Origin: Escherichia coli | GTDB taxonomy: Bacteria; Pseudomonadota; Gammaproteobacteria; Enterobacterales; Enterobacteriaceae | DNA: 460 bases | Reading direction: 5' to 3' (one strand) | NCBI RefSeq assembly: GCF_003334305.1 | Contig: NZ_QOWS01000075.1 | In this document: piece after piece, positions 1 to 460 of the stretch | Layout: the number at the start of each line of letters is the position of its first letter | Numbering within the stretch: position 1 is the stretch's first letter | Notes under the pieces: model-generated | The model's database searches: none | The model's input: only the letters and a program-made list of their open reading frames with translations | What the model was told of the DNA's origin: nothing | Translations under genes and position numbers: made by a program

Positions 1-100
1 GTCGGTATCTGGTGACAAAGACCAGGTGAACATGCATCAGGAAAACACAATGCCTTCCACGCCGGATATCGGTTTCTTTTTTCACAGACCAAAGTATCAT
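1..100 (-). CDS. tnpA: IS200/IS605-family Y1 (HUH-type) transposase TnpA, N-terminal 33 codons; gene continues beyond window position 1
   Basis: Minus-strand ORF starting at ATG (plus coordinates 100-98) and open to the window edge. Translation: MILWSVKKETDIRRGRHCVFLMHVHLVFVTRYR. The segment H-L-V-F-V-T-R-Y-R matches the conserved N-terminal beta-strand motif of IS200-like TnpA (Y-H-[IL]-V-[FW]-x-[PT]-K-Y-R; Pfam Y1_Tnp family). An in-frame TGA lies upstream at 154-152 and ATG 100-98 is the first start codon after it. An alternative GTG start lies at 85-83. Only a weak SD-like CAGGT (108-104) precedes the ATG. Family assignment is by motif recognition, not database search. Confidence 0.8.
   Translation of the reverse strand, partial: MILWSVKKETDIRRGRHCVFLMHVHLVFVTRYR
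18..28 (+). repeat. 11-bp exact direct repeat AAGACCAGGTG, copy 1 (inside tnpA coding region)
   Basis: Identical 11-mer at 18-28 and 140-150. Contains a CCAGG (Dcm-type CCWGG) site. Confidence 0.6.
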
Positions 101-112
101 TTGACCTGTGAA
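81..112 (-). promoter_or_regulatory. Predicted RNA stem-loop (13-bp stem, 6-nt loop) enclosing the tnpA initiation codon and SD-like sequence; candidate translational-occlusion structure
   Basis: Minus-strand transcript 5'-UUCACAGGUCAAA-UGAUAC-UUUGGUCUGUGAA-3' (plus coordinates 112 to 81). All 13 stem positions pair: 11 Watson-Crick plus 2 adjacent G-U wobbles. The tnpA AUG (100-98) sits at the stem/loop junction and the SD-like CAGGU is in the 5' arm. On the plus strand the same two positions are A-C/C-A mismatches, so the structure is complete only as minus-strand RNA. Confidence 0.5.
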
Positions 113-155
113 ACGATTACAGGCATTTAAATTCCAGTTAAGACCAGGTGGTCAA
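101..155. promoter_or_regulatory. Candidate overlapping divergent promoters: TTGACC (101-106), palindromic AT-rich ATTTAAAT (125-132), GGTCAA (150-155)
   Basis: Two -35-like hexamers TTGACC (5/6 match to TTGACA) face each other on opposite strands, 18 and 17 bp from a central 8-bp palindrome ATTTAAAT that could serve as a weak -10 (TTTAAA, 4/6) in either direction. Pattern match only; the -10 is poor. Confidence 0.25.
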
Positions 156-460
156 CAGGAGTGTGAAATGAGGCGCTTCGCAGGCGCATGTCGTTTCGTT
201 TTCAATCGTGCTCTGGCACGTCAGAATGAGAATCATGAGGCCGGTAATAAATACATCCCTTACGGGAAAATGGCTTCCTGGCTGGTTGAGTGGAAAAACG
301 CCACTGAAACGCAATGGCTTAAAGATTCGCCCTCACAGCCATTGCAACAGTCACTGAAAGACCTTGAGCGGGCTTACAAAAACTTCTTCCGGAAGCGGGC
401 TGCTTTTCCCCGATTCAAAAAGCGGGGACAGAATGATGCATTCCGCTACCCGCAGGGCGT
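108..460 (+). CDS. tnpB: IS200/IS605-family TnpB (OrfB; OMEGA-type RNA-guided nuclease), N-terminal ~117 codons; gene continues beyond window position 460
   Basis: Plus-strand frame 3 is open from the TGA at 102-104 to the window end. Translation from GTG 108: (M/V)KRLQAFKFQLRPGGQQECEMRRFAGACRFVFNRALARQNENHEAGNKYIPYGKMASWLVEWKNATETQWLKDSPSQPLQQSLKDLERAYKNFFRKRAAFPRFKKRGQNDAFRYPQG. This matches the conserved TnpB N-terminal pattern (KAxKFRLxP...Q...G.xRFVxNxxL ... WL ... LQxxLKxLxxAxKNFF ... FPRFKKK ... FRYPQ), e.g. as in ISDra2 TnpB. The conserved block begins about codon 5 after GTG 108, supporting 108 as the start although it has no obvious SD. An alternative start is ATG 168, preceded by AGGAG at 157-161, which would give a protein 20 residues shorter. 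Possibly E. coli IS609 insQ/ydcM-like; that identification is from memory and unverified. Confidence 0.92.
   Translation, partial: MKRLQAFKFQLRPGGQQECEMRRFAGACRFVFNRALARQNENHEAGNKYIPYGKMASWLVEWKNATETQWLKDSPSQPLQQSLKDLERAYKNFFRKRAAFPRFKKRGQNDAFRYPQG
140..150 (+). repeat. 11-bp exact direct repeat AAGACCAGGTG, copy 2 (inside tnpB 5' region)
   Basis: Identical 11-mer at 18-28 and 140-150. Copy 2 abuts the GGTCAA -35-like hexamer at 150-155. Confidence 0.6.
157..161 (+). promoter_or_regulatory. Shine-Dalgarno-like AGGAG, 6 nt upstream of in-frame ATG 168 (internal or alternative tnpB initiation site)
   Basis: AGGAG at 157-161, spacer TGTGAA, ATG at 168-170. Canonical SD sequence and spacing. 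It lies inside the conserved TnpB reading frame if GTG 108 is the true start. Confidence 0.5.

Follow-up and report, generated by a model that had tools for sequence, protein, structure and literature searches.

IS605 and IS608 of Helicobacter pylori are the mechanistic models for TnpA, the Y1 HUH transposase of the IS200/IS605 family. These elements carry subterminal hairpins and insert 3' of a tetranucleotide without target duplication; the right cleavage site of IS608 is TCAA. For TnpB, the RNA-guided nuclease, the system to compare is ISDra2 TnpB of Deinococcus radiodurans with its ωRNA (structures 8bf8, 8exa and 8h1j). IS609 (ISfinder name; insP/insQ = ydcM in K-12) is routinely reported in E. 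coli genome papers; it encodes a TnpB of 402 aa and, where the gene is complete, a TnpA of 143 aa. Its cleavage sites, TTAT and TCAA, are given in a paper on P1-like plasmids (PMC6906374). A diagnostic screen purified a TnpB under the label IS609, and its main text gives no result for that protein (PMC12781874); the single K-12 copy of IS609 underwent zero transpositions in mutation-accumulation lines (PMC5009759).

The DNA analysed here, hereafter the window, is a stretch of 460 nt from E. coli. To judge from its sequence, it very probably covers the place where the two divergent genes of IS609 begin. IS609 is an E. coli insertion sequence of the IS200/IS605 family (IS605-type), and the copy that the window matches lies 3' of TTAT in the last codons of yoaG, upstream of yeaQ; the name IS609 rests on PGAP labels and on the published cleavage sites. 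The window is identical at 460/460 positions to many complete E. coli chromosomes, and the PGAP labels beneath the matches read 'IS200/IS605-like element IS609 family transposase' and 'RNA-guided endonuclease InsQ/TnpB family protein'. Copies labelled IS609 or insQ are 98-99.6% identical to it: the BL21 copy at the ydcL-ydcO site, which is the K-12 insQ site, differs at 2 of 460 positions and an O157:H7 copy at 10 of 460. The published cleavage sites agree with those of the window's element. Compared with K-12-type IS609, however, the window's copy lies at yoaG-yeaQ and not at ydcL-ydcO, its right-end hairpin has two mismatches, and the state of tnpA varies among its carriers.

IS609 resembles IS605 in having divergent tnpA and tnpB genes, and it shares with IS605 and IS608 the insertion 3' of a tetranucleotide without duplication and, clearly so at the left end, the subterminal hairpin; TCAA is common to IS608 and IS609. 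It differs from them in its target, which is TTAT and not TTAC, in having start codons just 7 nt apart, and in that its TnpA is known from sequence. With ISDra2 it shares the fold family of TnpB, including the RuvC D/E/D residues and the zinc finger, and, by prediction, an RNA that combines the 3' end of tnpB with the right end of the element and takes its guide from the flank. Unlike ISDra2, IS609 has a predicted TAM of TTAT instead of TTGAT, a tnpA gene that is divergent instead of co-directional, ωRNA boundaries that are predicted, and a TnpB with a 15-residue insertion after E267. It is an IS605-type and not an IS607-type element. IS609 is already catalogued and very common in E. coli, the nuclease family of its TnpB has been studied well, and nothing here is new in that respect; the outcome of the analysis is a precise annotation of where and on which strands the two genes start, of the limits of the element, of its target/TAM and of the catalytic residues.

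The divergent start region

The window holds the back-to-back start region of tnpA (transposase) and tnpB (RNA-guided nuclease) of IS609, with the following features.

1-100, minus strand: 5' end of tnpA (Y1/HUH single-strand transposase), identified from the open translation, NCBIfam transpos_IS200, structure alignment and the PGAP tnpA annotation
Complement of 98-100, minus strand: tnpA ATG; codons 1-33 encode the N-terminal tail and the first beta-strand
101-107: spacer ttgacct, 7 nt, read from the sequence
108-460, plus strand: 5' end of tnpB (RNA-guided endonuclease InsQ/TnpB), from GTG 108, codons 1-117
105-123: hairpin CCTGTGA-AACGA-TTACAGG, from RNA folding, which encloses the tnpB GTG
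157-170, plus strand: internal Shine-Dalgarno-like AGGAG (157-161) and ATG (168-170, TnpB Met21), read from the sequence

The tnpA frame runs on the minus strand from 100 to 2, 33 codons without a stop, and translates as MILWSVKKETDIRRGRHCVFLMHVHLVFVTRYR. The tnpB frame runs on the plus strand from the GTG at 108 to 458, 117 codons without a stop, and its translation begins VKRLQAFKFQLRP. An earlier, sequence-only reading of the window had noted that both frames start cleanly and contain neither stop nor frameshift, which is correct. It had also named the two genes tnpA and tnpB; the identities stand, but the strands, which it left unstated, are opposite ones, the two start codons facing away from each other across the 7 nt of 101-107. 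Its assignment to the IS200/IS605 family agrees with the identification as IS609, and its remark that only the N-terminal part of TnpB is present holds too: the window covers residues 1-117, which, from the ISDra2 structures, I take to be the first WED strand and the REC region, whereas the RuvC and zinc-finger residues all lie outside it. Similarly, only residues 1-33 of TnpA fall in the window. The motif HVHLV that they contain (residues 23-27, His-x-His) is the conserved first beta-strand and differs from the catalytic HUH at 69-71. Intact frames within the window give no information on the remainder of tnpA or tnpB, and an element can be broken elsewhere even where its 5' gene ends are intact.

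A consensus promoter scan revealed none in or adjacent to the window, either for tnpA or for tnpB. Since the spacer is only 7 nt long, any promoter of either gene must sit within the opposite gene. BLAST comparison suggests that a relative from Xylella likewise has a start spacing of 7 nt, although its annotated tnpA start lies 22 nt from tnpB.

Within the 7-bp hairpin at 105-123 lie the tnpB GTG and, on the opposite strand, the AGG that immediately precedes the tnpA ATG. As plus-strand RNA it folds at -8.6 kcal/mol (z -2.92, 3 of 200 shuffles being equally good), while the minus-strand fold is without significance (z -0.69). SNPs at 104 and 117 occur together in other alleles and shift the stem without destroying it; in one of these (locus L002), which has 104 A>G together with 117 T>C, the moved stem folds at -10.0 kcal/mol (z -2.85). 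No clear conservation of the hairpin was found in the Klebsiella and Xylella relatives. The fold is reminiscent of the start-occluding stem-loop of IS200, and it is possible that it could occlude translation starts here.

Codon 5 of tnpB (120-122, CAG) is intact in the window. Four copies of a second haplotype at the yoaG site (L012, L014, L024 and L026) have a nonsense codon at this position. In these four, PGAP places the start at Met21, 60 nt downstream of the GTG and preceded by the AGGAG, so that the annotated 'TnpB' has 382 aa.

Element limits, encoded proteins and insertion sites

In a chromosome that contains the exact window (locus L001), IS609 extends from 3612 to 5359 (1,748 bp) and the window corresponds to 4001-4460. 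The order of parts is: left-end hairpin, tnpA (minus strand), 7-nt spacer, tnpB (plus strand), a structured right end of about 140 nt that overlaps the 3' end of tnpB, and TCAA.

Complete TnpA has 143 aa, with the HUH motif at 69-71 (H69-V-H71) and the tyrosine at 134, as in the Y1 HUH transposases of the IS200/IS605 family; both motifs lie outside the window. Two complete tnpA reading frames match transpos_IS200 with 145.7 and 141.0 bits (cut-off 55). The protein aligns to the solved IS200/IS605 transposases 2f4f, 2a6m (ISHp608 TnpA) and 2xm3, its PDHVHLLIN and RQYIEQQ segments falling on their HUH and Tyr motifs.

Full-length TnpB has 402 aa and matches guided_TnpB with 386.7 bits (cut-off 100, E 1.4e-115). 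Its Pfam domains are HTH_OrfB_IS605 (residues 1-48), OrfB_IS605 and Cas12f1-like TNB, so that the architecture is that of an OMEGA endonuclease: WED/REC, RuvC and zinc-ribbon TNB. It aligns with ISDra2 TnpB (8bf8) over residues 3-372 (E 1.8e-55), and D183, E267 and D363 align with the GVDVG, TEHLK and DRDENAALNI motifs, that is, with the RuvC triad. The CxxC...CxxC zinc finger is formed by C334, C337, C353 and C356. The length, the RuvC residues and the zinc finger are those which the sequence-only reading had wished to see in a full-length tnpB, and they bear out its view that the element encodes a TnpB nuclease, to which the predicted ωRNA of the right end would belong.

The limits of the element can be read from a comparison of occupied and empty sites. 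At the empty yoaG-yeaQ site (locus L004), CGTTCTTAT is followed directly by GACACGGAAAACG. At the occupied site, CGTTCTTAT is followed by the element, which begins CCGGTGCGCC and ends GGATGTCAA, and then by GACACGG. The two sites therefore differ by the element exactly, which lies between TTAT and the end of its own TCAA, and target duplication is absent. The element conforms in this to the IS200/IS605 family, whose members insert 3' of a specific tetra- or pentanucleotide, duplicate no target and lack terminal inverted repeats. The same junctions recur at the places sampled: TCAA forms the last four bases at 7/7 insertion sites, and the left flank ends in TTAT at 6/6 sites whose left junction was found by pattern. 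The sampled sites are the following.

IS609 insertion sites: yoaG; a TetR gene near ytfB; ydcL-ydcO; gltX-yfeD; yfaY-yfaV; yedK; yidI

All seven exact matches inspected adjoin yeaQ and, wherever the left junction survives, lie in the 3' end of yoaG. Sequence resembling the window is held by 4,996 of 5,426 complete E. coli genomes, at a median of two places per genome, and from this count a fixed, possibly domesticated insertion was suspected. That idea was dropped: of the 5,426 genomes, 4,318 have the empty site and only 1,099 the yoaG insertion, according to a junction query. The insertion in yoaG is polymorphic rather than fixed, and the other matches to the window are different copies.

Through the insertion, yoaG loses its final 11 codons and gains 13 that are read from the IS609 left end (L001 3465-3653 compared with L004 326-508). 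The interrupted YoaG, which ends in SYPVRRKTPSFRAGI, has 62 aa instead of 60 and is labelled 'DUF1869 domain-containing protein' by PGAP.

Element ends, predicted right-end RNA and predicted guide

The left end contains a strong DNA hairpin, CCCCGTCC-TTCA-GGGCGGGG, within a longer stem (-14.1 kcal/mol, z -2.87). At the right end, a K-12-type copy has the hairpin CCACGTCC-TTCA-GGGCGTGG (-7.7 kcal/mol, z -2.24), whereas the lineage of the window has CCTCGTCA-TTCA-GGGCGTGG, in which two mismatches leave 6 of 8 pairs (-3.1 kcal/mol, z +0.39). The hairpin is formed in other IS609 copies and in relatives, with compensatory changes. The mismatches were considered as a sign of immobility, and this was abandoned on finding the same variant at three insertion sites (yoaG, yfeD and yidI).

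The last 140 nt or so of the element show a conserved four-stem ωRNA-like fold and constitute the predicted ωRNA region. An alignment of the last 146 nt from 11 sequences (five E. coli copies, Salmonella, Klebsiella (two), Providencia and Xylella plasmids, and a phage P1 fragment) gave a consensus with four stems and 38 pairs, and compensatory changes occur in 6 of these pairs. Since the region partly encodes the TnpB C-terminus, an RNA structure does not account for all of its conservation. Folded as a single sequence, the right end did no better than shuffles (z -0.41), and it is the alignment by itself that supports the structure. A permissive Rfam scan of the whole element detected no ωRNA family, the one match being to RAGATH-18 (RF03064) below threshold. 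RAGATH-18 is the Rfam family from which the IS607 TnpB guide RNAs come (PMC11061315). The match is partial, comprising the outer stem and the conserved GAAGCAGGAA at L001 5243-5286, inside the predicted ωRNA; its score of 25.4 bits (E 0.083), against a gathering score of 44.9, means that the IS609 sequence is no member of the family.

As its guide the ωRNA is predicted to have GACACGGAAAACGAAC, the flanking sequence that follows TCAA directly. With TTAT in front, this guide reproduces the empty yoaG site exactly, an arrangement expected from the work on TnpB-assisted transposon retention in ISDra2 and Geobacillus. By analogy with IS608 and ISDra2, TnpA would cut the top strand after TTAT and after TCAA, excise the element as a single-stranded circle and, in this 'peel and paste' mode, put it back into single-stranded DNA 3' of another TTAT. 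TnpB, if it acts like its homologues, would bind an ωRNA to which the 3' end of tnpB and the right end both contribute, with the flank past TCAA as guide. It would then cut DNA that matches the guide next to a TTAT, in this case the empty yoaG site, and recombination would restore a lost copy.

State of the copies and autonomy

I opened 19 IS609 copies, 13 of them at the yoaG site, and these 13 fall into two haplotypes.

Exact-window haplotype, yoaG site (L001, L005, L006, L007, L015, L016, L017; n = 7): tnpB of 402 aa in 7/7; tnpA complete in 4/7, stop changed from TAG to CAG in 2/7, interrupted by a Mu-like prophage in 1/7
Second haplotype, yoaG site, 7-9 differences from the window (L012, L013, L014, L024, L025, L026; n = 6): tnpB broken in 5/6, by the codon 5 nonsense mutation or a frameshift; tnpA broken in 6/6

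The complete 143-aa tnpA accompanies the 402-aa tnpB in L007, L015, L016 and L017, but the count of complete tnpA genes is biased upwards, since L015-L017 were found through an intact-type query, and the samples are small. Among the four exact-match genomes picked regardless of the state of tnpA (L001, L005, L006 and L007), tnpA is complete in one. At the six other insertion sites, tnpB is intact in 6/6 and tnpA in 1/6. The BL21 copy at ydcL-ydcO is one of those with a tnpA pseudogene, owing to an internal stop; as this is also the K-12 site, the immobility of the K-12 copy fits a broken tnpA. The yoaG site carries both a well-kept and a decayed IS609 haplotype, and even in the well-kept one tnpA is often broken and tnpB is not.

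Loss of the tnpA stop (TAG to CAG) creates a frame of 320 codons (L001 3138-4100, minus strand) that crosses the left-end hairpin and then extends over yoaG and yeaR in antisense orientation. Relatives from Xylella and Salmonella have a stop at the same position, so the CAG is the derived state. Its frequency was estimated from 12 evenly spaced records out of the 1,100 with the yoaG junction, the classes being checked on examples: 5 of the 12 belong to classes with the tnpA stop and about 7 to stop-lost classes.

In the interrupted copy (L005, E. coli E2865, 1-1334), the Mu-like prophage lies inside tnpA, with a gene for a Mu transposase C-terminal domain at the junction. It parts the window-bearing portion of the element from the left end by about 39 kb.

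The sequence-only reading had proposed a candidate autonomous and complete element, and this is true of some carriers of the exact window and false of others. What was to be confirmed of tnpA, namely its full length of 143 aa, the HUH motif and Tyr134, is found in four of the seven exact-window genomes; in the other three the stop is lost or the gene is cut by the prophage. Of the expected ends, TTAT, TCAA, the left hairpin and the lack of target duplication are all there, while the right hairpin is the mismatched one. The autonomy of the yoaG copy, then, varies by strain: the exact-window haplotype keeps tnpB, and tnpA is complete in some carriers only. Whether the element is non-autonomous in the very genome from which the window comes, a lost stop codon, an internal stop or an inserted prophage beyond the window having disabled tnpA, seems to me evenly balanced. 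In that event tnpB and the ωRNA alone would be functional, and movement would need TnpA in trans from another copy. The single complete tnpA among the four genomes chosen regardless of its state argues for such inactivation, as do the derived character of the CAG at the stop, the share of about 7/12 for the stop-lost class at the yoaG locus and the weakened right-end hairpin of the window's lineage. Against it stand the four of seven exact-window genomes with both genes complete, three of which, however, came from the intact-type query. Moreover, the right-end variant is also present at the yfeD and yidI sites and so has probably been mobile in the past, and a C-terminally extended TnpA might still function.

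That the host has instead co-opted tnpB, perhaps for RNA-guided regulation or as a nuclease for defence, is disfavoured and in my judgement very improbable. The gene is under purifying selection (pairwise pN/pS 0.17-0.62, mostly 0.17-0.4), it stays intact where tnpA is dead, and tnpB-only copies exist on phage-plasmids, all of which would suit such a role. The RuvC triad is nevertheless intact, unlike that of the exapted TldR-type relatives of TnpB. Furthermore, the yoaG insertion is polymorphic and present in only 20% of genomes, tnpB was lost in five of six samples of the second haplotype at the same site, and the predicted guide targets the element's own empty site, which is the configuration of a selfish element. 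Still further from the evidence is the notion that both open frames are chance ORFs and not genes, for which one could cite the shortness of the tnpA fragment: 33 codons that, taken by themselves, match transpos_IS200 at E 1e-3 with only 21 residues aligned. It is refuted by the guided_TnpB match of the tnpB fragment (E 5.9e-27), by that of the full protein and by the annotation of a gene here in thousands of genomes; the fragment matches and the HTH_OrfB_IS605 domain of TnpB show that the genes are real.

Returning to the element whose autonomy varies by strain, one speculation on its tnpA-dead carriers, which I consider unlikely, is that TnpB and the ωRNA are kept by selection through cutting of incoming empty yoaG alleles. 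Such an allele, which contains TTAT and the guide, would arrive by recombination or transfer, and the yoaG insertion would be a small allele drive without need of transposition. A smaller possibility still is that the two divergent genes are both held down in translation by the hairpin at 105-123.

IS609-like sequence also occurs on phages and plasmids. Phage P1 (NC_005856.1; about 1501-1639 of locus L023, record positions 61346-61484) has a solo IS609 right end of about 140 nt, with 78.6% identity and without tnpB. It consists of the last 100 nt or so of tnpB together with the right-end hairpin, ends in GCCAA and preserves most of the four-stem fold. The spacer in which it lies, between incA iteron 1 and the par promoter, is unannotated. 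The same solo right end is present in two P1-like plasmids (H163 and H164).

The IS609-like tnpB is common on P1-like and SSU5-like phage-plasmids (H54, H133, H172-H177 and L019; RCS47, SJ46 and relatives). H54 and L019 are clearly without tnpA, and the copies of RCS47 and SJ46 adjoin ddrA. The IS609 right end matches 2,297 plasmid records, mostly from Klebsiella, at about 82% identity. Near-identical copies (98%) are found in phage records of Morganella (H171) and Aeromonas (phage AP1, H175), and the filamentous phage If1 (H178) is among the phage records with IS609-like sequence.
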